IMG/VR virus record: IMGVR_UViG_3300009419_002129
Reading direction: 5' to 3' (one strand)
Length of the DNA stretch: 5,753 nucleotides
Source: a virus
Below, in pieces: positions 1-5,753 of the stretch; positions within the stretch are counted from its first letter, which is position 1; each line of letters opens with the position of its first letter. Made by a program: the position numbers and the translations under genes. The notes under the pieces were generated by a model. The model saw only the letters and a program-made list of their open reading frames with translations. It did not search any database and was not told where the DNA came from.

Positions 1-123
1 AGCAATTACGCCGAGTTTGCACCACGCTTGGTGTAACGCCATGCAACAAACAGAGCAATAACAACAAGAGCACCACCAAAAATTAATTTGGCATTTGCAG
101 TAACAGAAGTTAAACCTGATGTG
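1..123. repeat. Terminal redundancy, copy 1 (identical to 5631-5753); it marks the window as a circular 5630-bp replicon
   Basis: A base-by-base comparison of 1-123 with 5631-5753 shows 123/123 identity. The repeat boundary falls inside the coat-protein CDS, so it is not an att or LTR-type repeat. Confidence 0.9.
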
Positions 124-266
124 AATGCAGTAACATCAAGATCACCTTCAGCATGTGCAGCAGATGAAAGAACAGCTAAACCAGCAACAGTTGTAGCAAC
201 CCCAAGTTTTGTATAAGCATCATTTACTTTCTGAGCAATTGATGGTTTTTTTTCTTGAATTTCCAT
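6..266 (-). CDS. Major coat protein precursor (pVIII-like)
   Basis: The product is 86 aa. It has a hydrophobic leader ending in AHA followed by EGDLDV (an AXA signal-peptidase site after residue 39). The mature ~47-aa peptide has an acidic N-terminus (EGDLDV), a hydrophobic core (LIFGGALVVIALFVAW) and a basic C-terminus (RYTKRGANSA). A strong SD (AGGAG) lies 8 nt upstream of the ATG. The gene sits before a strong terminator and the pIII-like gene, as in Ff phage. Confidence 0.85.
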   Translation of the reverse strand: MEIQEKKPSIAQKVNDAYTKLGVATTVAGLAVLSSAAHAEGDLDVTAFTSGLTSVTANAKLIFGGALVVIALFVAWRYTKRGANSA

Positions 267-276
267 TGAAATTCTC

Positions 277-471
277 CTAAAGCAATTTAGCGGCTTTGGC
301 TATGACCGCAAAAGAAACGAATACAATCCACAACTTGCCAAATTCTCTGTATATCAATCGGGCTTCTTCACCAGTGATAGCCAAATAATCTGTAAAGTTT
401 GACTGTACGACCCAAGAAGCACACGTTTGAACACCCTCAATTACTTGTAATGTTTCACAGACGTATGCCAT
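277..471 (-). CDS. Small hypothetical protein with a C-terminal hydrophobic segment, in the pVII/pIX position; possibly a minor coat or assembly protein
   Basis: This 64-aa ORF lies between the ssDNA-binding-position gene and the coat gene. It has a C-terminal hydrophobic stretch (LWIVFVSFAVIAKAA). Its TAG stop overlaps the coat gene SD. Its own SD is weak (GGA). I recognise no motif in it. Confidence 0.5.
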   Translation of the reverse strand: MAYVCETLQVIEGVQTCASWVVQSNFTDYLAITGEEARLIYREFGKLWIVFVSFAVIAKAAKLL

Positions 472-483
472 TTTTTAAAATCC

Positions 484-513
484 AAAAAAAACGCTCAGTA
501 AAAATTACTGAGC
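484..513 (-). terminator. Intrinsic terminator or attenuator at the 3' end of the gene-V-position CDS
   Basis: The minus strand reads GCTCAGTA-ATTTT-TACTGAGC (8-bp perfect stem, arms at 493-500 and 506-513) followed by G and T8 (complement of A8 at 484-491). The stem includes the TAA stop codon at 505-507. Confidence 0.7.
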
Positions 514-747
514 ATTAGAAATTTGAGCATTAGCAAAATACAAACGATCACCTTTTAGAATCAGTTGTAAATCGACAAATTCACCACTTTCCGCAAGATC
601 AGCCAACTGACCTTTTTCAGAATTGTTTGTATAAGCAACAAACTTGGTAACAGGCTCAACAACTTCAAAAGTAAAGAGCTGATTACCTTTTTTTGATTCA
701 AATGTATTTAATTTAACGCCTTCAACTAAAACTTTAATTCCGTCCAT
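505..747 (-). CDS. Putative ssDNA-binding protein (gene V-like by size and position)
   Basis: The product is 80 aa starting at MDGIKVLVEG. The SD GAAGGG lies 7-8 nt upstream of the ATG at 745-747. The longer ORF-track start at 822 lies inside the -35 box of the predicted promoter and is therefore rejected. A small protein directly downstream of rep and upstream of the coat genes matches the gene V position. There is no direct motif evidence. Confidence 0.55.
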   Translation of the reverse strand: MDGIKVLVEGVKLNTFESKKGNQLFTFEVVEPVTKFVAYTNNSEKGQLADLAESGEFVDLQLILKGDRLYFANAQISNAQ

Positions 748-793
748 TTCTTTACCCTTCTGTTTGTCTGTTATCACAAAGTTTGTACGAAAT

Positions 794-822
794 ATTATGT
801 TGTCATGACAACAAGTTGTCAA
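794..822 (-). promoter_or_regulatory. Near-consensus sigma70-type promoter for the ssb-coat structural operon
   Basis: The minus strand reads TTGACA (complement of 817-822), a 17-nt spacer, then CATAAT (complement of 794-799). The -35 box matches consensus 6/6 and the -10 box 5/6. It sits about 45 nt upstream of the ATG at 747. Confidence 0.7.
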
Positions 823-837
823 GACGAAATGACAACA
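798..837. promoter_or_regulatory. Two operator-like inverted repeats built from the half-site TGTTGTCA/TGACAACA
   Basis: O1 is a perfect 16-bp palindrome, TGTTGTCATGACAACA, at 798-813, inside the promoter spacer. O2 is GTTGTCA-N8-TGACAACA at 815-837 and overlaps both -35 boxes. A 14/16 copy lies at 2308-2323. Confidence 0.7.
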
Positions 838-844
838 ATAAATT
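816..844 (+). promoter_or_regulatory. Candidate divergent promoter for the 60-aa regulator gene
   Basis: The plus strand reads TTGTCA (816-821), a 17-nt spacer, then TAAATT (839-844), about 38 nt upstream of the ATG at 882. It is weaker than the opposing promoter, and the two -35 boxes overlap. Confidence 0.45.
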
Positions 845-881
845 ACACTAAAAAACTGAGTTTTTTTTAAGAGATTTCAAA

Positions 882-1064
882 ATGATGGCGTATTTACGAG
901 TAAAGAAGATAGAAGATGAGCTTCTAAAAAAGATAAGTGAAGAACTAAATAGACAACGTTTAGACTTAGGAAAGAACGTCATGAAAGATAGTGAAATCCT
1001 TCACGACGTACTAATAAAAGCTTTAGAAAAATGCAAAGTTGAAGAAGGTGAGTTAATAGTGTGA
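882..1064 (+). CDS. Small putative transcriptional regulator (ribbon-helix-helix-like pattern)
   Basis: This 60-aa ORF is the only plus-strand ORF not buried antisense in a long gene. It is divergent from the structural operon across an operator-rich region. Its pattern fits a beta strand (AYLRVKKI), helix (EDELLKKISEELNRQR), turn and helix (SEILHDVLIKALEK), as in the CopG/Arc-type fold. The SD is weak (AAGAG). A second ATG at 885 is an alternative start. Confidence 0.55.
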   Translation: MMAYLRVKKIEDELLKKISEELNRQRLDLGKNVMKDSEILHDVLIKALEKCKVEEGELIV

Positions 1065-2222
1065 TTCCATAGAAGCAATTTCTCTTTTTGCTAAATCTTC
1101 TATTAATAAATAGGCTTCACTGGTGATTGTGCCGTAGTTCCCTGAACTGTAATCATTCTCCAGTGCAGTTAAATAAGTGTGACGTTTTTGATATTTACAT
1201 AACAATGAAAAAATTAATTGTGGTACTTCTTCTAAAGTAATACCCATATTTTCTGTTTCTTCTGCTAGTTCTTCATCTGTTTTTTCTTCAATTTCTAAAA
1301 GCTTTTTAAGACCACGTGACCAAACCAATTGACGAGCACCTTTAAAAGCAACTCCAAATTCCTGATAGAGCTTTCCATGTTGTTCAGATAATTCATGTTC
1401 AAGCATAGAAGATTGAAGCAGATCGAAAGGAGTTAAACCACCTTCACGACCTTTTTTGATATGGCCTTTTGTTAATTCACTTTCAACACCCCATTTAGAA
1501 ACATATTGTTCAGCATAAGAACCATCACGAATATCTAAACCATGTTGAAGGGATGGAAGGGGAAGATTTGCTTTTTGACAGCAGTTAATCCAGTGTTTAG
1601 AGAGGGATTGTTTTAATTCAAAGAAATTTTCAACAGGCTGACCATTTGTAAAAATCAAAATATGATAATGAGGATGCCAGCCATTTTTACCATGAGTAAC
1701 TTCAAAAGCACGAACTTGATATTCACGACCTAAACAATCATCTAAAAGAAACTTACCTTTCCGATCACCAAAGAAATAGCCTAAGGCTTTTTTTTGTCCT
1801 GCAATAAGAGAACGGAGAGAATGACTAGCAGAATGACTATTTGTAAGAGTTAAAAGAAGAATTCCACCCTGAAAACGATCTTTCCAAGTTTTAACACCCT
1901 GCTTTAATTCTTCACGACGCTTTTCAGTAATTTGTTTAGCACAGACAGGACAAGTCCAAATAGAACCGCATCGTTGAACATTACTCCAGTGAGCTTTGCA
2001 TCTTTCTTCATTGTATTTAACAAAACGACCTTTAGATTTATCAATGCGTCTTTTTAAACAATTAGTGACTCTTTCACGGGGCAAAAGCTTTGCTGATTGA
2101 TCTTGTAATAAAAAATCATGAACCCTCTGAAAGCCTTTATTTTCGGGCGTGGACTGAGATTTCGTAAATATACCAAGGGCGTCGATTTTTGGGGTATTGA
2201 TTTGACTTAAAGAGGAATCCAT
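1053..2222 (-). CDS. Rolling-circle replication initiator, HUH endonuclease (pC194/pUB110 Rep_1-like motifs)
   Basis: The product is 389 aa. Motif 1 is ILLLTLTN (residues 121-128). The HUH motif WHPHYHILIF has the codons CAT CCT CAT TAT CAT, verified at 1662-1676. The candidate catalytic-Tyr motif is EQYVSK (Y240, codon at 1503-1505). An upstream Cys/His cluster reads C75-x2-H-x6-C85-x5-C91-P-V-C94, resembling the CxxxxCPxC element of Rep_1-family proteins as I recall it. Confidence 0.8.
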   Translation of the reverse strand: MDSSLSQINTPKIDALGIFTKSQSTPENKGFQRVHDFLLQDQSAKLLPRERVTNCLKRRIDKSKGRFVKYNEERCKAHWSNVQRCGSIWTCPVCAKQITEKRREELKQGVKTWKDRFQGGILLLTLTNSHSASHSLRSLIAGQKKALGYFFGDRKGKFLLDDCLGREYQVRAFEVTHGKNGWHPHYHILIFTNGQPVENFFELKQSLSKHWINCCQKANLPLPSLQHGLDIRDGSYAEQYVSKWGVESELTKGHIKKGREGGLTPFDLLQSSMLEHELSEQHGKLYQEFGVAFKGARQLVWSRGLKKLLEIEEKTDEELAEETENMGITLEEVPQLIFSLLCKYQKRHTYLTALENDYSSGNYGTITSEAYLLIEDLAKREIASMESHY

Positions 2223-2260
2223 TGTTTAATATATCCAGTGTCGCAAGCACAAATTCACCG

Positions 2261-2291
2261 AAAAAGCCTGAATTGCCGTTCAGGTTTTTTT
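2261..2291. terminator. Bidirectional terminator-like hairpin between the operator copy and the rep start
   Basis: The plus strand reads A5-G-CCTGAA (2267-2272), TTGCCG, TTCAGG (2279-2284), then T7 (2285-2291). The stem is 6 bp. The T-tract has 7 T on the plus strand and 5 T on the minus strand. Confidence 0.5.
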
Positions 2292-2299
2292 CGTCCTTA

Positions 2300-2327
2300 A
2301 AAATGTTTGTTGTCATGTAAACATTTT
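2300..2327. promoter_or_regulatory. Inverted repeat containing a third operator-like copy, upstream of rep
   Basis: AAAATGTTT (2300-2308) and AAACATTTT (2319-2327) form 9-bp perfect arms. Embedded at 2308-2323 is TGTTGTCATGTAAACA, which matches the 16-bp palindrome at 798-813 at 14/16 positions. Confidence 0.55.
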
Positions 2328-2436
2328 GATTAACTATAAAACAAAGCTGTAAAAAAATCTAATAAGAAAGCCAAAAACTAACAGCATAATGAAAAATTTA
2401 AGGCACCATTTAATAAAATCCATATTCCCTCAGTTC

Positions 2437-2484
2437 GCGCCCATGCGGGACGCTCTGTAACTCCCGTTTAAGATCATACGGGAG
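2437..2484. other. Pair of GC-rich hairpins just downstream of the zot-like stop (candidate packaging signal, complementary-strand origin or terminator)
   Basis: Hairpin A is GCGCCC-ATGC-GGG(A)CGC at 2437-2453, with 6 bp and one bulge. Hairpin B is CTCCCGT (2461-2467), a 10-nt loop, then ACGGGAG (2478-2484), with 7 bp perfect. The region is locally much more GC-rich than its surroundings. Confidence 0.45.
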
Positions 2485-2491
2485 CTTGTAA

Positions 2492-3859
2492 TCAGAGAGA
2501 AGAAGTTTCAGGATCAGATAATTGTTGTTCGGGAGCACTCCGCTCCCTCTGTTGCTGTTGTGATGAAGCAAAATAATTAAACGGACGATAACCATCTAAC
2601 CATCTTTGACAATCAGAAGCAGACACAGAAGGCATATAGTTACCTTGCTGATCTAAAGCCATAAGGCGACCACTGGAGAGCTTTACAACACCTGACATTC
2701 TAGGGAAGTCAGTAGGATTTAATTTTTCAGGTACATATTCAAAATCATAAGGCTTTGAAGGATTATAAACAGCTTGATAAACCTCTCCAGTAGAAGAAAC
2801 AGAAGATTTATTTTTAGAAAGATCATCAAACCATTTAACACATTCAGGCTTTTCGATATTTACTGCTTTTCTACATTCTTGGGAAAGATCACTGGAAGGA
2901 TTATCCATAGGCTTAGAACTAGAAGCCACAGTAGAAACGGTATTAGTATTTGATCCATTAGCTATTTCCTCTGCTTTTTTCTTATCAGATAAACCCCATG
3001 CAAACATAGCACCAGCGACACATAAAAATAAACCTAAAGGAATTAAACCAGCAGGTAAACGCTTTTTGTGGGTATCAATAGTTGTGGATTTATATAATTT
3101 AAAAACTCTAGGTTGTGGTTTAAAACTAAATTTTGATTCACAGTTAAGTTTATTTACTAATGTATTCGGATATTGTCGGCACGATCCAAACTGATAAACC
3201 TTCGGAGTACGTCCATAAGGTCGCGTGATATGCCAATGTACGCCAATCAATTCACGAACAATAGGATGAAGAAAAGAAGGTGATTGAGTAATCAAATAGA
3301 AATCAAAACCACGGTGACGATGAATTGTTAAATCCTGAATCATTCGATCATTGGATTTTTTGTCTGAATAAGGTTCTACGTTCTGAATCTCATCAATAAC
3401 AATAATAGAACCGTCTGGAGCTTCTCGCCAATCATGAATAAGAGCACGAACATTATCAATTTTTAGAGCTTTAATATTTGTGTAAATTGTGCGAACAGGT
3501 TGAAGAAACTCAAATTTTTGTTGTCCTTCACGATCATTAATACGCTCAATAATTTCGTTATAATAAATAGAACGCTGAAAATAAAAATCAGGACGTAAAT
3601 CATCAAATTCTTGATCTAAGAAATCCCAATAATCTTTATCAAAATTTAAAATCTCTGTTTTTAATTCATGACCTGAACCAACTTCATAGGTGTAATAATC
3701 AAAATCATCACGATAGAGATCAAATAAATTTTTATTGTGTTCATGAACAAGTTTATTTTTAGCAAGGTTGATTTTGTTTTTACGTTCAACTTCATCAAGT
3801 TTAGTGACTACAAAAGCGGTTTTACTTGCACCAGGTACGCCAGTAATTAAATGCAACAT
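2492..3859 (-). CDS. Zot/pI-like phage assembly ATPase
   Basis: The product is 455 aa. It has an N-terminal P-loop, GVPGASKT (residues 7-14, nt 3818-3841), a Walker B motif IIVIDE (152-157) and HRHRGFDFYLITQ, as in Zot-family proteins. A single central TM segment, LPAGLIPLGLFLCVAGAMFAWGL (~268-290), is followed by a Ser-rich C-terminal domain. The SD GAGGTG lies 9 nt upstream of the ATG. Confidence 0.85.
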   Translation of the reverse strand: MLHLITGVPGASKTAFVVTKLDEVERKNKINLAKNKLVHEHNKNLFDLYRDDFDYYTYEVGSGHELKTEILNFDKDYWDFLDQEFDDLRPDFYFQRSIYYNEIIERINDREGQQKFEFLQPVRTIYTNIKALKIDNVRALIHDWREAPDGSIIVIDEIQNVEPYSDKKSNDRMIQDLTIHRHRGFDFYLITQSPSFLHPIVRELIGVHWHITRPYGRTPKVYQFGSCRQYPNTLVNKLNCESKFSFKPQPRVFKLYKSTTIDTHKKRLPAGLIPLGLFLCVAGAMFAWGLSDKKKAEEIANGSNTNTVSTVASSSKPMDNPSSDLSQECRKAVNIEKPECVKWFDDLSKNKSSVSSTGEVYQAVYNPSKPYDFEYVPEKLNPTDFPRMSGVVKLSSGRLMALDQQGNYMPSVSASDCQRWLDGYRPFNYFASSQQQQRERSAPEQQLSDPETSSL

Positions 3860-3876
3860 TAGAAATTCACCTCAAT

Positions 3877-3926
3877 AAAAGCGCGCTTTAGGCTCGTCGA
3901 TGGCTCCTCGCCATTAGCGCGCTTTT
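3877..3926. terminator. Compound GC-rich hairpin between the pVI-like and zot-like genes (bidirectional terminator/attenuator or structural signal)
   Basis: The outer arms AAAAGCGCGCT (3877-3887) and AGCGCGCTTTT (3916-3926) are 11 bp perfect. An inner hairpin ATGGC-TCCTC-GCCAT lies at 3900-3914. T-tracts are present on both strands. The element abuts the pVI-like stop codon at 3927-3929. Confidence 0.55.
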
Positions 3927-4202
3927 TTATTGTTTGCCAAAAAATGTTTTTGTTGATTGTTGGGTGTATCTAGTAAGCATTGCACCCAAGATTAAAGAAA
4001 AGAAAATGTCAAAACCTGAAAGGCCCATTAGTTGAACTAATGTGTTAGGTATCTGGCCTAAAGATGATGTGAAAAGATCAATAGCCTGATTCAAGAAAAC
4101 AAGCATTGCACCACTGGTTAAAAGTGTTAATCCAGCACCTTCAAGAACATTCTTAAGAAAGCCTTTCTGTGTACTTGCTAAGATGGTTGATAAATTACTC
4201 AT
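3927..4202 (-). CDS. pVI/Ace-like small hydrophobic minor coat protein
   Basis: The 91-aa product has two to three hydrophobic segments (GAGLTLLTSGAMLVFL; GFDIFFSLILGAML). It lies between the pIII-like and pI-like genes, as in Ff and CTXphi. Its start overlaps the pIII-like stop (ATGAGTAA), which suggests translational coupling. Confidence 0.65.
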   Translation of the reverse strand: MSNLSTILASTQKGFLKNVLEGAGLTLLTSGAMLVFLNQAIDLFTSSLGQIPNTLVQLMGLSGFDIFFSLILGAMLTRYTQQSTKTFFGKQ

Positions 4203-5523
4203 TGACTTTCACCCCTCCAAGAATAAGAGCAGCTATAAAAGCACCGAGGGAAATAAGGATAGGTCTAACCCAATCAGAAAGAATCGAGCAGAAACCATCA
4301 AAAGAAAATTCAATTTTGAAAGGCTGACCGTAGAAATCAGAATCAATAAATACAACTGGAGCAGGACAACCAGAAGCTAAATTAATATCAACAGATTCAG
4401 CTTCTAAATCTAATTGTTCAACATCTACTTCTGTATCTTCTGAATCTTTTTCTTTTGTTGCCCATTCTTTAGCAGCAGTCCAAGCTTCTGAGATAGATAA
4501 AGCCCATTCTTCGGCTTTTGATTTTCCTGTTTCCCACCAATTTGTAAGAGTTTGAGGAAAAGAGATAACAACTTGAGCAGCTTCACAAACTAAAGGTGCC
4601 CAACCACAAAAAACAGGAAATTCTAAAGATAAATCCATTGCTTCGGGATTTTGAGTATTAGGCTTTGATTGTCCTTGAGCTTCATTGGCTTTTTCAGCAG
4701 CAGCTTCATCAGCAGGTTTTGTTTGAGCAGATGCTTCTAATTGTTGAGCAATAGGACGAGCTTTGGCATCGTCTTTTTCAGCTTCTGCAACAATGTCAGC
4801 AGCAGCAGCAGTTGTTGCAGCTTGAGCGTTTGTATCGCCTGATTCAGCATTTGAAATAACTTTTTGAGCTACAACTTCAAGAGGTAAAGTTTTTTGTTCT
4901 TCTTCAGGTTCAGCATTAGGATCATAATTAGGATTAGCAACACTTAAAGGATTAGCTTCATAGTTGCGATTAGGATAGCCAGGATAAGTGAGAACGGCTG
5001 TACATTTAATACGAACACCAGGTGTTTTAACTGATGAAGCAGTGGGACAAGAATAAGATTGAATAGTCCAACCTGCCATGTTTGTATTTAAAATTTTTCG
5101 AACAACTGAATCAAGAGATTCACAAGTACCACCATTCCAAGTCCAACAAACTGGGGAATCAGGAGGAACCTTTGTAGGGTCTTGTGGTTTTGTATAAACA
5201 ATCTGATTGTTTGCAGGATCAAGAACCCAATCTACAGAACCTAATAATTGTTCAACAGCTACAGACAAGGCATAACCAGCAGCACCACGAGCAAGAACTT
5301 TGGCAACACCACTTGCAGGAGGAGTAATTTTTGCAGTGCCTTTTTTTATATAATCGACACCATCAATAACAACTTTTTTTGTACCTTCATAAACAGTAGA
5401 AGCACCTTGAGCGACACCACCACCCAAAGTCCAACCGCCAACATTGGCAGCATAAATATTTGTACTAATCAAATTAAAACAAAGGACAAAAATCAGAGCT
5501 ATAAAGCTTTTATTATTAGCCAT
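4195..5523 (-). CDS. pIII-like adsorption/minor coat protein
   Basis: The product is 442 aa counted from MANNKSF, with the SD GGTGG 5 nt upstream of the ATG at 5521-5523. The signal peptide ends at IYA followed by A. The mature protein has eight Cys in four plausible pairs, followed by an Ala/Glu/Gln-rich low-complexity linker. The C-terminus, CPAPVVF...GQPFKIEFSFDGFC plus the TM anchor ILISLGAFIAALILGG, resembles the M13 g3p C-domain (CRPFVF..GKPYEFSIDC plus anchor) as I recall it. Confidence 0.8.
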   Translation of the reverse strand: MANNKSFIALIFVLCFNLISTNIYAANVGGWTLGGGVAQGASTVYEGTKKVVIDGVDYIKKGTAKITPPASGVAKVLARGAAGYALSVAVEQLLGSVDWVLDPANNQIVYTKPQDPTKVPPDSPVCWTWNGGTCESLDSVVRKILNTNMAGWTIQSYSCPTASSVKTPGVRIKCTAVLTYPGYPNRNYEANPLSVANPNYDPNAEPEEEQKTLPLEVVAQKVISNAESGDTNAQAATTAAAADIVAEAEKDDAKARPIAQQLEASAQTKPADEAAAEKANEAQGQSKPNTQNPEAMDLSLEFPVFCGWAPLVCEAAQVVISFPQTLTNWWETGKSKAEEWALSISEAWTAAKEWATKEKDSEDTEVDVEQLDLEAESVDINLASGCPAPVVFIDSDFYGQPFKIEFSFDGFCSILSDWVRPILISLGAFIAALILGGVKVNE

Positions 5524-5593
5524 GTTGCCACCGTTAAAATAATTACTGGAGTCCAATTTAGGATTGATGGATCTTCTAACATGCTTACCCCCT

Positions 5594-5620
5594 AAAAGAA
5601 GAAAGCCCCATTTCTGGGGC
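5594..5620 (-). terminator. Strong intrinsic terminator after the major coat gene
   Basis: The minus strand reads GCCCCA-GAAA-TGGGGC (arms at 5605-5610 and 5615-5620) followed by TTTCTTCTTTT (complement of 5594-5604). It lies 15 nt downstream of the coat TAA stop at 5636-5638. This matches the placement of the post-gene-VIII terminator in Ff phage. Confidence 0.8.
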
Positions 5621-5630
5621 GTTTCAAAAC

Positions 5631-5753
5631 AGCAATTACGCCGAGTTTGCACCACGCTTGGTGTAACGCCATGCAACAAACAGAGCAATAACAACAAGAG
5701 CACCACCAAAAATTAATTTGGCATTTGCAGTAACAGAAGTTAAACCTGATGTG
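5631..5753. repeat. Terminal redundancy, copy 2, containing a duplicate of the 3' end of the coat CDS (5636-5753, minus strand)
   Basis: This segment is identical to 1-123. It is not an independent gene. Confidence 0.9.

Follow-up and report, generated by a model that had tools for sequence, protein, structure and literature searches.

The DNA considered here is a stretch of 5,753 nucleotides (nt) deposited in IMG/VR as virus record IMGVR_UViG_3300009419_002129; it is called the window, and the word always means the whole stretch at its full length. The question raised by this locus is whether it represents a complete phage genome or a part of some other replicon, and, if it is a phage, how it replicates and in which host. 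A preliminary description had taken the window as a complete circular inovirus-like genome and not as a chromosomal segment. The present analysis bears this out, as the circle closes through one permuted contig and five others, the inovirus core genes are present and host flanks are lacking. The window is very probably one turn (5,630 bp), plus a 123-bp overlap, of the genome of an uncultivated filamentous phage (Tubulavirales, inovirus-like) with Acinetobacter as its most likely host and with the mechanism of replication and expression proposed below.

Terminal repeat and circularity

The window has a G+C content of 36%, and the longest overlap between its two ends is 123 bases, which are identical throughout.

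1..123, no strand: terminal direct repeat, left copy, identical to 5631-5753
5631..5753, no strand: terminal direct repeat, right copy, a second copy of the 3' end of the coat gene

The overlap had been placed inside the coat gene (6-266), and this is borne out. It spans the 39 final codons and the stop codon of the coat open reading frame (ORF) of 86 amino acids (aa), together with 5 more bases. When one repeat copy is subtracted the genome unit is 5,630 bp, positions 1-5630 being the true unit.

Circularity was judged from independently assembled public contigs, which are referred to by L numbers. One of these, L012 (ENA ERZ27245771, k141_838035), is the same genome as the window; it has 5,772 bp with a 141-bp terminal repeat, giving a unit of 5,631 bp, and is 99.9% identical to the window (three mismatches, one gap) in circularly permuted form. 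Positions 1/5630 of the window correspond to positions 2837/2838 of L012, so that the junction is crossed without a break, and the junction 5630/1 is also crossed by the contigs L004 (IMGVR_UViG_3300011892_000013), L011, L015, L017 and L019. Since L012 is permuted and reads across 5630/1, the repeat is to be regarded as the assembler overlap of a circle. Its length also fits a k-mer, as the end overlaps in sister contigs are 141, 127 or 30 bases and the names of the ENA contigs start with k123_ or k141_. We therefore infer that the 123-bp repeat is a k-mer overlap of a de Bruijn assembler on a circular path and not a biological duplication, which speaks against the tandem-duplication alternative that had been considered earlier. 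It should be noted that the assembly data fit a monomer circle or a head-to-tail concatemer alike; the genome unit is defined in both cases.

At least 17 public contigs encode a Rep (replication initiator) identical to that of the window; the longest of them does not exceed 6.5 kb, and host flank was seen in 0 of the 17. Longer contigs of relatives were considered as a sign of integration and rejected. L082 (ENA ERZ28615135, 12,956 bp) consists of two head-to-tail copies of a 6,750-bp relative with the same type of initiator (Rep_1), L084 (JGI 3300057063, 11,687 bp) is a walk joining two different Rep_1-type genomes, L021 (described below) is likewise a two-genome walk, and none of them has host flanks. 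The 6,750-bp monomer of L082 carries additional small ORFs. Neither integrase nor transposase was found among the ORFs and Pfam matches of the window, no site in it matched the Acinetobacter dif/pdif consensus at up to three mismatches, and Rfam and tRNA scans of the window gave nothing.

The range given for inoviruses by the International Committee on Taxonomy of Viruses is 5.5-10.6 kb and 7-15 proteins (PMC8491893). The unit of 5,630 bp with nine ORFs falls inside the range of filamentous phages for size and for protein number. The genome had been said to sit at the small end of the Inoviridae; it is indeed at the low end of the range, but it is within it, and circular relatives with 5,571 and 5,585 bp are smaller still.

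Structural and assembly genes

All the long ORFs are on the minus strand except one, that of a 60-aa protein (p60), which is on the plus strand. Along the minus strand the order is Rep, the antisense 60-aa ORF, an 80-aa protein (p80), a 64-aa membrane protein (p64), coat, pIII-like, DUF2523/pVI-like and Zot/pI, just as first described, and in related contigs an independent gene caller returned these products too (389, 60, 80, 64, 86, 442, 91 and 455 aa). The count of eight genes has to be raised, as nine are plausible: a 29-aa hydrophobic ORF at 2334-2423 (p29) had been missed, so that eight ORFs lie on the minus strand and the 60-aa ORF on the plus strand.

6..266, minus strand: major coat protein precursor, 86 aa (PF05356, 22.1 bits; weak PHROG coat-family matches)
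4195..5523, minus strand: pIII/TspB-like adsorption protein, 442 aa from the ATG at 5523 (phrog_7568, E 3e-83)
3927..4202, minus strand: pVI-like minor coat protein, 91 aa, DUF2523 (match to PF10734 at 35.6 bits, cutoff 22.1; phrog_1242)
2492..3859, minus strand: Zot/pI-like assembly ATPase, 455 aa (match to PF05707 at 46.2 bits, cutoff 20.3; phrog_197, E 7e-55)

The match to PF05707 is the one that the preliminary description had proposed as a check of the pI/Zot assignment, and it upholds it. The pIII-like gene and then the pVI-like gene sit between coat and pI, as in filamentous phages. ORF reading and hydropathy of the coat precursor give a leader ending in AHA and a mature part of 47 aa that is acidic at the N-terminus, hydrophobic in its core and basic at the C-terminus. 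By hydropathy, the pIII-like protein has a signal peptide, a linker rich in Ala, Glu and Gln and a C-terminal membrane anchor, the pVI-like protein has two to three hydrophobic segments, and Zot has one membrane span at about residues 267-291 followed by a C-terminal periplasmic part; its Walker A motif is GVPGASKT and its Walker B motif IVIDE.

The central part of the pIII gene (~4483-5200) is hypervariable, and pIII is 66-73% identical where the neighbouring genes are 97-100% identical. This hints that the receptor-binding part diversifies or recombines. In comparison with L011 the synonymous and non-synonymous differences are 21/0 in Rep, 11/0 in p60, 17/0 in pVI and 9/0 in coat, and for Zot they are 9/1 against a close relative. 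Judged by these counts, the inovirus core genes are under strong purifying selection.

Rep and a candidate nick site in its gene

1053..2222, minus strand: Rep, 389 aa, rolling-circle initiator of the HUH (histidine-hydrophobic residue-histidine) class, Rep_1 family (pC194/pUB110) (PF01446, 45.1 bits against a cutoff of 33.2; phrog_11698, E 1e-111)
2154..2177, minus strand: element B, CTTGGTATATTTACGAAATCTCAG, rep codons 16-23, with frozen codons; candidate double-strand origin and nick site

In Pfam the Rep of the window matches Rep_1 only. Its motifs TLT (125-127), HPHxH (183-187) and Y240-V-x-K243 are invariant among 9 phage and plasmid homologues and are those to be expected of an active HUH initiator, and there is an N-terminal Cys-rich motif, CGSIWTCPVC. 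The protein is 52-61% identical to the Reps of Acinetobacter rolling-circle plasmids of 1.6-2.7 kb. k-mer sharing between the window and plasmids singled out two blocks, which are called here elements A and B.

Element B lies inside rep. With eight plasmids compared, codon identity at identical amino acids is 55/55 in this element against 0.55 over the whole gene, and the next best window of 8 codons, that of the HUH motif, reaches 0.81. Fourteen Rep_1 replicons were tested for CTTGGTATA, and 13 of them have a single copy of it, on the rep-sense strand. The conserved Rep_1 nick sequence on the leading strand is known to be CTTGATA (PMC10378824). This canonical sequence is missing from the rep-sense strand in most of the 14 replicons; in the window it is found on the non-coding strand only, at chance frequency, and the coding strand has the one-base variant CTTGGTATA. 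CTTGATA was rejected as origin on this ground. Because the codons are frozen and a single rep-sense copy is kept across Rep_1 replicons, we read element B as the probable double-strand origin, with CTTG/GTATA as candidate nick.

A pC194-like intergenic origin, CTTTCTTATTAGAT (~2368-2355, minus strand), which resembles TTCTTATCTTGATA, was considered as well. It was rejected, being conserved only in near-identical relatives; it is missing from the plasmids and from L021-L023 and is located within the p29 ORF.

Element A, a hairpin element shared by phages and plasmids

2430..2505, minus strand: element A, which overlaps the stop codon of zot and combines a tract of pyrimidines and the invariant CTGATTACA(AGCTCCC) with two hairpins

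Element A is situated directly 3' of zot in inoviruses of the Rep_1 type and of the Phage_CRI type. Its carriers include Acinetobacter phage M02 (OQ693633, 6,243 bp), pANC7912.4 of Acinetobacter sp. ANC 7912 (NZ_CP156799, 6,373 bp; L024), the prophage in the A. lwoffii plasmid pmZS (NZ_CP019144; L027) and 22 further IMG/VR contigs, the Zot proteins of which have identities as low as 22-30%. Rep_1 plasmids, which lack zot, have it as well, in their non-coding part, and in a Rep-only plasmid of 1,579 bp it is the sole conserved non-coding block. The element, with CTGATTACAAGCTCCC, is located at L001:3533 and L024:1282, and in L027, L028-L033 and the 22 IMG/VR loci. Among 35 distinct instances the position of hairpin 2 is constant and the changes in its stem are compensated (GCGTCCC/GGGCGC, GCATCCC/GGGTGC, CGAGC/GCTCG, CGGGC/GCCCG, GCGTCAC/GTGCGC). 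Folding was done sequence by sequence; RNAalifold on the mixed alignment gave no useful consensus, the two hairpin-2 classes being misaligned in it.

Integrated relatives have element A as a single copy. A role as attachment site was rejected, as there is no flanking duplicate in these relatives and no likeness to dif. Since the element is common to replicons with unrelated initiators, it is unlikely to be specific for one Rep. The most economical role that can be read from its distribution would be that of a minus-strand (single-strand) origin read by the host.

A wider proposal would make element A (CTGATTACAAGCTCCC) a host-read cis signal of Acinetobacter replicons that pass through single-stranded DNA (ssDNA), serving also as packaging or recombination signal, so that the small Rep_1 plasmids would be natural phagemids. 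We regard this as rather unlikely. If it is true, Acinetobacter filamentous phages could package and spread small Rep_1 plasmids, and phages and plasmids could exchange replication cassettes at element A, as the walk of L021 suggests. Elements A and B are not mentioned in the sewage plasmidome paper PMC9600348. In L061 (Rheinheimera riviphila) the element-A probe has five matches with up to two mismatches at 4035-4177, spaced 35-36 bp apart; these are probably a chance match to an unrelated tandem or CRISPR (clustered regularly interspaced short palindromic repeat)-like repeat.

Small proteins

505..747, minus strand: p80, 80 aa, at the gene-V position; predicted OB (oligonucleotide/oligosaccharide-binding) fold
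882..1064, plus strand: p60, 60 aa (phrog_5642, E 2e-15); the 3' end of rep overlaps it by 12 nt
277..471, minus strand: p64, 64 aa, with a C-terminal membrane span (hydropathy), at the position of genes VII/IX (phrog_13391, E 5e-8)
2334..2423, minus strand: p29, 29-aa hydrophobic peptide MDFIKWCLKFFIMLLVFGFLIRFFYSFVL, with a strong Shine-Dalgarno sequence, GAGGGA, and homologues

The AlphaFold2 model of p80, made from an alignment of 24 sequences, has a predicted local distance difference test score (pLDDT) of 83 and the topology β1-β2-β3-α-β4-β5. Foldseek against PDB returned OB folds, including the ssDNA-binding proteins Rim1, LEF-3 and RPA (template modelling score about 0.6, E 8e-4 to 5e-2). 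No Pfam family matched p80 (Phage_DNA_bind, ssDBP and G5P included), and it has no similarity to the ssDNA-binding protein of Pseudomonas phage PMBT54; membership of a known gene-V family was thus rejected and only the OB fold is left. Because an OB fold is predicted, p80 is presumed to be an ssDNA-binding protein with a gene-V-like role, which fits the earlier description of it as the gene-V-position protein.

The family of p60 is small. HMMER found only 23 relatives in 1.84 billion representative proteins, nearly all of ~60-69 aa with a few of odd length. The AlphaFold2 model (pLDDT 95) consists of two helices and a β-hairpin, and nothing significant was found for this fold or family in PDB, BFVD, Pfam or a profile search of PDB sequences. 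The sequence pattern had hinted at a ribbon-helix-helix repressor; structure and profile searches gave no support to this candidate. Comparison by hhalign with the positional analogue in PMBT54 was negative. The gene of p60 is divergent from the p80-coat operon. Two distant members of the family are found in inoviruses of 5.6-5.8 kb with a Phage_CRI Rep, where they stand directly upstream of rep and divergent from it; in CTXφ the like slot is held by the repressor RstR. These very small Phage_CRI-Rep inoviruses, with distant p60 members in the divergent-regulator slot, are L208 (5,761 bp) and L209-L211 (Logan SRR7339962, SRR7339992 and SRR7339947), the latter being 5,614 bp each and the same genome in three sequencing runs. 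From its position, the operator-like repeats described below and the distant members in a divergent-repressor slot, it is a reasonable inference that p60 is a transcription regulator or an immunity protein. The name of regulator given to it in the preliminary description thus rests on position, repeats and distant members and gets no support from homology or fold. Mini-replicons made of Rep_1, p60 and p80 only, comparable to the RS1 satellite, were also considered and rejected, since the p60 contigs of 1.9-2.4 kb are fragments of full phages.

Homologues of p64 with 30-47% identity are found in Acinetobacter and Moraxella prophages, and the protein is presumed to be a minor virion or assembly protein. 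p29, which sits between element A and rep, has homologues of 31-32 aa in the same place in pANC7912.4 and in the pmZS prophage, and is probably a membrane peptide.

Promoters, operator-like repeats and terminators

794..844, both strands: divergent promoter/operator region with promoter-like boxes and GTTGTCA half-sites
490..516, minus strand: terminator- or attenuator-like hairpin overlapping the p80 stop codon
976..1009, minus strand: terminator-like hairpin ~45 nt 3' of the rep stop, within the antisense p60 coding region
2267..2284, minus strand: terminator-like hairpin CCTGAACGGCAATTCAGG with T-run, closing the long transcription unit of structural and assembly genes, a short way upstream of rep
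2300..2328, minus strand: hairpin of 9 bp, AAAATGTTT…AAACATTTT, the loop of which holds the fifth GTTGTCA/TGACAAC copy
3873..3932, minus strand: GC-rich branched hairpin between the pVI-like gene and zot
5605..5620, minus strand: terminator-like hairpin GCCCCAGAAATGGGGC with T-run, directly 3' of the coat gene

The best promoter match in the window is TTGACA-17-CATAAT on the minus strand (822→794), directed toward p80; TTGTCA-17-TAAATT on the plus strand (816-844) is directed toward p60. The spacer between p60 and p80 is 134 bp long, and it has four GTTGTCA half-sites (799-836) in two inverted pairs, which overlap the 822→794 promoter. The fifth copy, at 2309-2315, is upstream of rep. Five copies of GTTGTCA stand against 0.86 expected, and five were reached in 1 of 200 shuffles. 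The same arrangement of promoter and half-sites is seen in all the relatives that carry p60.

The hairpin between the pVI-like gene and zot may be a packaging signal or an attenuator of zot. Hairpins of unrelated sequence are found at this position in L013/L016, M02, L034 and L035 (coordinates L013:1205-1320, L001:2390-2485, L034:7900-8015). The position is kept and the sequence is not, and the hairpin is missing where the pVI-like gene and zot overlap.

Host and mosaic population

Several comparisons lead to Acinetobacter. Of the DNA matches in plasmid records 150 of 154 are from this genus, and the structural genes match the pmZS prophage and the 6.4-kb 'plasmid' pANC7912.4. A scan by Zot alignment with one genome per species had its best matches only in Moraxellaceae: the Zot of a prophage in Acinetobacter sp. 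MD2, integrated in a 258-kb contig, has 59% identity to that of the window, and the other best matches are in A. rongchengensis, A. guerrae, Moraxella and Psychrobacter. By these similarities the host is most likely Acinetobacter. Integrated copies in host genomes, for which a search had been proposed, did not turn up: the Rep_1, p60 or p80 cassette is carried by 0 of 48 Zot-bearing loci in representative genomes. The window had been called not placeable as any named phage, and no near match indeed exists among 50,697 deposited phage records; near-identical uncultivated genomes are nevertheless present in IMG/VR, ENA and Logan, and the genome can be placed in an Acinetobacter-associated inovirus group.

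The contigs L015, L017, L011 and L019, from other sequencing runs, have the same arrangement as the window and are 95-99% identical to it outside the variable pIII segment. Across contigs with identical Rep, Rep and p60 are 100% identical and p80 is 78-100% identical, while the same Rep cassette stands on at least two structural modules, with Zot 48-53% identical and coat similarity not detectable. Initiators of the other type, that of gene II (Phage_CRI and G2P_X_C; PF05144, PF05155), are carried by M02, Dulem virus 65 (see below), pANC7912.4 and the first Rep of L021. L021 (JGI 3300076574, 8,295 bp) is a walk through a genome of the Phage_CRI type and one of the Rep_1 type with one common structural module, and the boundaries of the exchange are element A and the start of p64. 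In L021-L023 one genome has an HTH_3 regulator and a Phage_CRI Rep, and the other has Rep_1, p60 and a 100-aa protein; the shared ends of L021 are 96.5% and 100% identical, and the contig is a true heterodimer or an assembly walk. The comparisons show a strikingly mosaic population, in which replication cassettes would be exchanged between the gene-II type and Rep_1.

Proposed mechanism and alternative explanations

On the reading of the window as a filamentous phage genome, Rep would nick the viral (coding) strand at CTTG/GTATA within its own gene (element B) and drive rolling-circle synthesis. Element A would act as a host-dependent minus-strand origin by which the incoming ssDNA is turned into the replicative form, and the OB-fold protein p80 would coat and sequester the progeny ssDNA. 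The strong 822→794 promoter would serve p80, p64 and coat, with terminators after p80 (516→490) and after coat (5620→5605). Read-through would give lower expression of pIII, pVI, Zot and p29 up to a stop at 2284→2267, and the hairpin 1009→976 would follow rep. The divergent p60 would bind the four GTTGTCA half-sites and the one upstream of rep and in this way set expression or immunity. Zot and the minor proteins would extrude virions through a host secretin, which would be needed because the phage encodes none. As there is no integrase, transposase, dif-like site or host-flanked copy, the phage probably persists as an episome.

A number of points weigh against this reading. The genome is known from assemblies alone, with no virion, ssDNA or host observed, and the host is assigned by similarity only, without backing from a CRISPR spacer match or an integrated copy of the lineage. 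The coat protein scores 22.1 bits with Phage_Coat_B (PF05356), where the cutoff is 23.5, so that its membership of the family is marginal. No secretin gene is among the ORFs of the window, and export needs some host channel. Element B also encodes a conserved peptide, LGIFTKS, and is one base off the canonical CTTGATA, and element A could be a packaging signal instead of an origin. No convincing rep promoter was found in the window, and p60 has no recognisable DNA-binding fold. In the plasmid pA85-1a (L033; 1537-1583, 2186) TGACAAC is present as four or five direct repeats and p60 is not detectable; the binder of GTTGTCA is therefore uncertain, and a protein other than p60, perhaps Rep, may bind these sites.

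Could the replicon be a plasmid and not a transmissible phage? It would then be an Acinetobacter rolling-circle plasmid that has captured an inovirus module and makes few virions or none. Rep and elements A and B are typical of the 1.6-2.7 kb Acinetobacter Rep_1 plasmids, the related pANC7912.4 was deposited as a plasmid of a cultured isolate, and neither a secretin gene nor an integration function is present. A captured module of this kind is hard to reconcile with morphogenesis and coat genes that are all intact and under strong purifying selection, or with a pIII whose receptor-binding part diversifies between otherwise identical genomes, which argues for selection on adsorption. The label of pANC7912.4 does not discriminate, since the replicative form of an inovirus is itself a plasmid-like circle. 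Several established inoviruses are without a secretin of their own, and CTXφ leaves the cell through the host secretin EpsD. The plasmid explanation is accordingly given little probability.

The chances are slim, too, that the circle is only apparent and was collapsed by the assembler from a tandem prophage array or from a piece of a larger replicon. Related modules do occur in integrated form, both in genomes of Acinetobacter, Moraxella and Psychrobacter and in the 186-kb pmZS, head-to-tail dimers are seen in the contigs L082 and L084, and tandem repeats have been suggested for some A. baumannii filamentous prophages (PMC11209303). The dimers, however, are likewise without host flanks, none of the 17 contigs with the identical Rep is longer than 6.5 kb or contains host DNA, no dif-like site, integrase or transposase was found, and the cassette of Rep_1, p60 and p80 is missing from all 48 Zot-bearing genomic loci. 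An assembly chimera of co-occurring phage variants, with a gene combination that is absent in nature, might be imagined from the strong mosaicism, from the one Rep cassette on at least two unrelated structural modules and from the walks of L021 and L084 through two different genomes, but it is highly improbable, as L012, from a different assembly with a different k, repeats the whole genome and four contigs from other runs keep its arrangement. A filamentous phage genome, with the mechanism outlined above, is thus the preferred explanation of the window.

Significance

The genome is an ordinary undescribed addition to a known virus group, at most a new species or genus among Acinetobacter filamentous phages, and as such one more small uncultivated inovirus beside the many catalogued from metagenomes. 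It belongs to a widespread, probably episomal Acinetobacter lineage of 5.6-6.8 kb which is missing from deposited phage records and recurrent in public assemblies. The lineage offers a clean natural case of replication-module exchange, as near-identical structural modules go with a gene-II-type or a Rep_1 cassette and, conversely, identical Rep_1 cassettes are found on unrelated structural modules. Through elements A and B these phages are tied to the small cryptic Rep_1 plasmids that are found in Acinetobacter from clinical and environmental sources, and the two elements could explain the replication of such plasmids and possibly their movement.

Comparison with known systems

Within IMG/VR the nearest genome is L004, which is 90-95% identical (~94%) over ~96% of the unit, near the species threshold of 95%, and has the same genes in the same order. 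It differs in its pIII, which is only 72% identical, and in ~250 additional bases that separate element A from p29. These bases (L004 ~5760-5884 and 1-150) correspond to window ~2424-2430; two ORFs lie in them, one of 33 aa that is rich in Cys and His (MRSDNIRCTLCGKIIQKRF…) and a hydrophobic one of 27 aa.

pANC7912.4 and the pmZS prophage have the same layout of structural and assembly genes as the window, and share with it the p29 homologue and element A directly 3' of zot. Their pIII is 52-60% identical to that of the window (60% in pANC7912.4), with 85% DNA identity over ~1 kb, whereas Zot is only 36-41% identical. Both have a small reverse ORF upstream of rep; the Rep of pANC7912.4 is of the Phage_CRI plus G2P_X_C type and that of pmZS is annotated as 'II/X family'. 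The pmZS copy is integrated in its plasmid, and pANC7912.4, because it has the full inovirus gene set, looks like the replicative form of an inovirus.

Among deposited phages the only match at the DNA level is Dulem virus 65 (PP511900, Inoviridae, from lemur saliva, 6,177 bp), with 69.5% over 795 bp of zot. Its proteins are 49% (Zot), 48% (pVI), 41% (coat) and 44% (p64) identical, and its pIII-like gene matches as well. Like the window it is small and circular with the same gene order; unlike the window it encodes a Phage_CRI Rep and has a G+C content of 31%, and with two mismatches allowed no element A was found in it. M02 shares a TspB-like pIII (31%), Zot (33%) and element A after zot, and differs in its Phage_CRI Rep. 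Acinetobacter filamentous phages were first characterised only in 2024, and A. baumannii Af1, described then, resides in the host DNA as a prophage of 7.2 kb; it has a Rep with a NicK domain and a transposase of the IS110 type (PMC11209303).

The small Acinetobacter Rep_1 plasmids pA85-1a, pAb-B004d-c_4, pMRSN56-1, pM131-9 and A. tandoii p2 have the same HUH and Tyr motifs, an identical element B within rep and element A in the non-coding part. The first three represent the plasmid types R1-T2, T3 and T6 (PMC9927589). These Rep_1 plasmids are of 1.6-2.7 kb, have no coat or assembly genes, and no homologue of p60 or p80 was detected in them. The unit is thus unlike the R1 plasmids, which are below 3 kb and have no morphogenesis genes, in being 5.63 kb long with Zot, pIII-like, pVI-like and coat genes.

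Two cultured phages, PMBT54 (OR047306) and Propionibacterium phage B5 (NC_003460, 5,804 bp), have Reps that are 27-32% identical to that of the window and score 32.5 and 33.8 bits, respectively, with Pfam Rep_1. As both carry Rep_1-like initiators, this type of initiator is already known in the virus order and the Rep type is no novelty. PMBT54 has a 64-aa reverse ORF overlapping the 3' end of rep, like p60, and the counterparts in PMBT54 and B5 have no detectable similarity to p60 or p80. PMBT54 encodes its own secretin; B5, which is similarly small, has a Gram-positive host and is classified in the Paulinoviridae.

The models of the group are the Ff phages (M13/f1/fd) and CTXφ. Their modules are ordered as replication, ssDNA-binding protein, small membrane proteins, pVIII, pIII, pVI and pI, with a terminator after the coat gene and origin hairpins in an intergenic region, and in CTXφ the regulator is transcribed divergently. 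The window departs from these models in having no gene IV secretin, a different Rep family and a candidate nick site inside rep. CTXφ integrates by XerCD; the window has no dif-like site by the Acinetobacter dif/pdif consensus, and among the contigs and the 48 loci no host-flanked copy was found. What it has in common with them is the order of the modules, a terminator that follows coat in the way one follows gene VIII in the Ff phages, and hairpins of the origin type.

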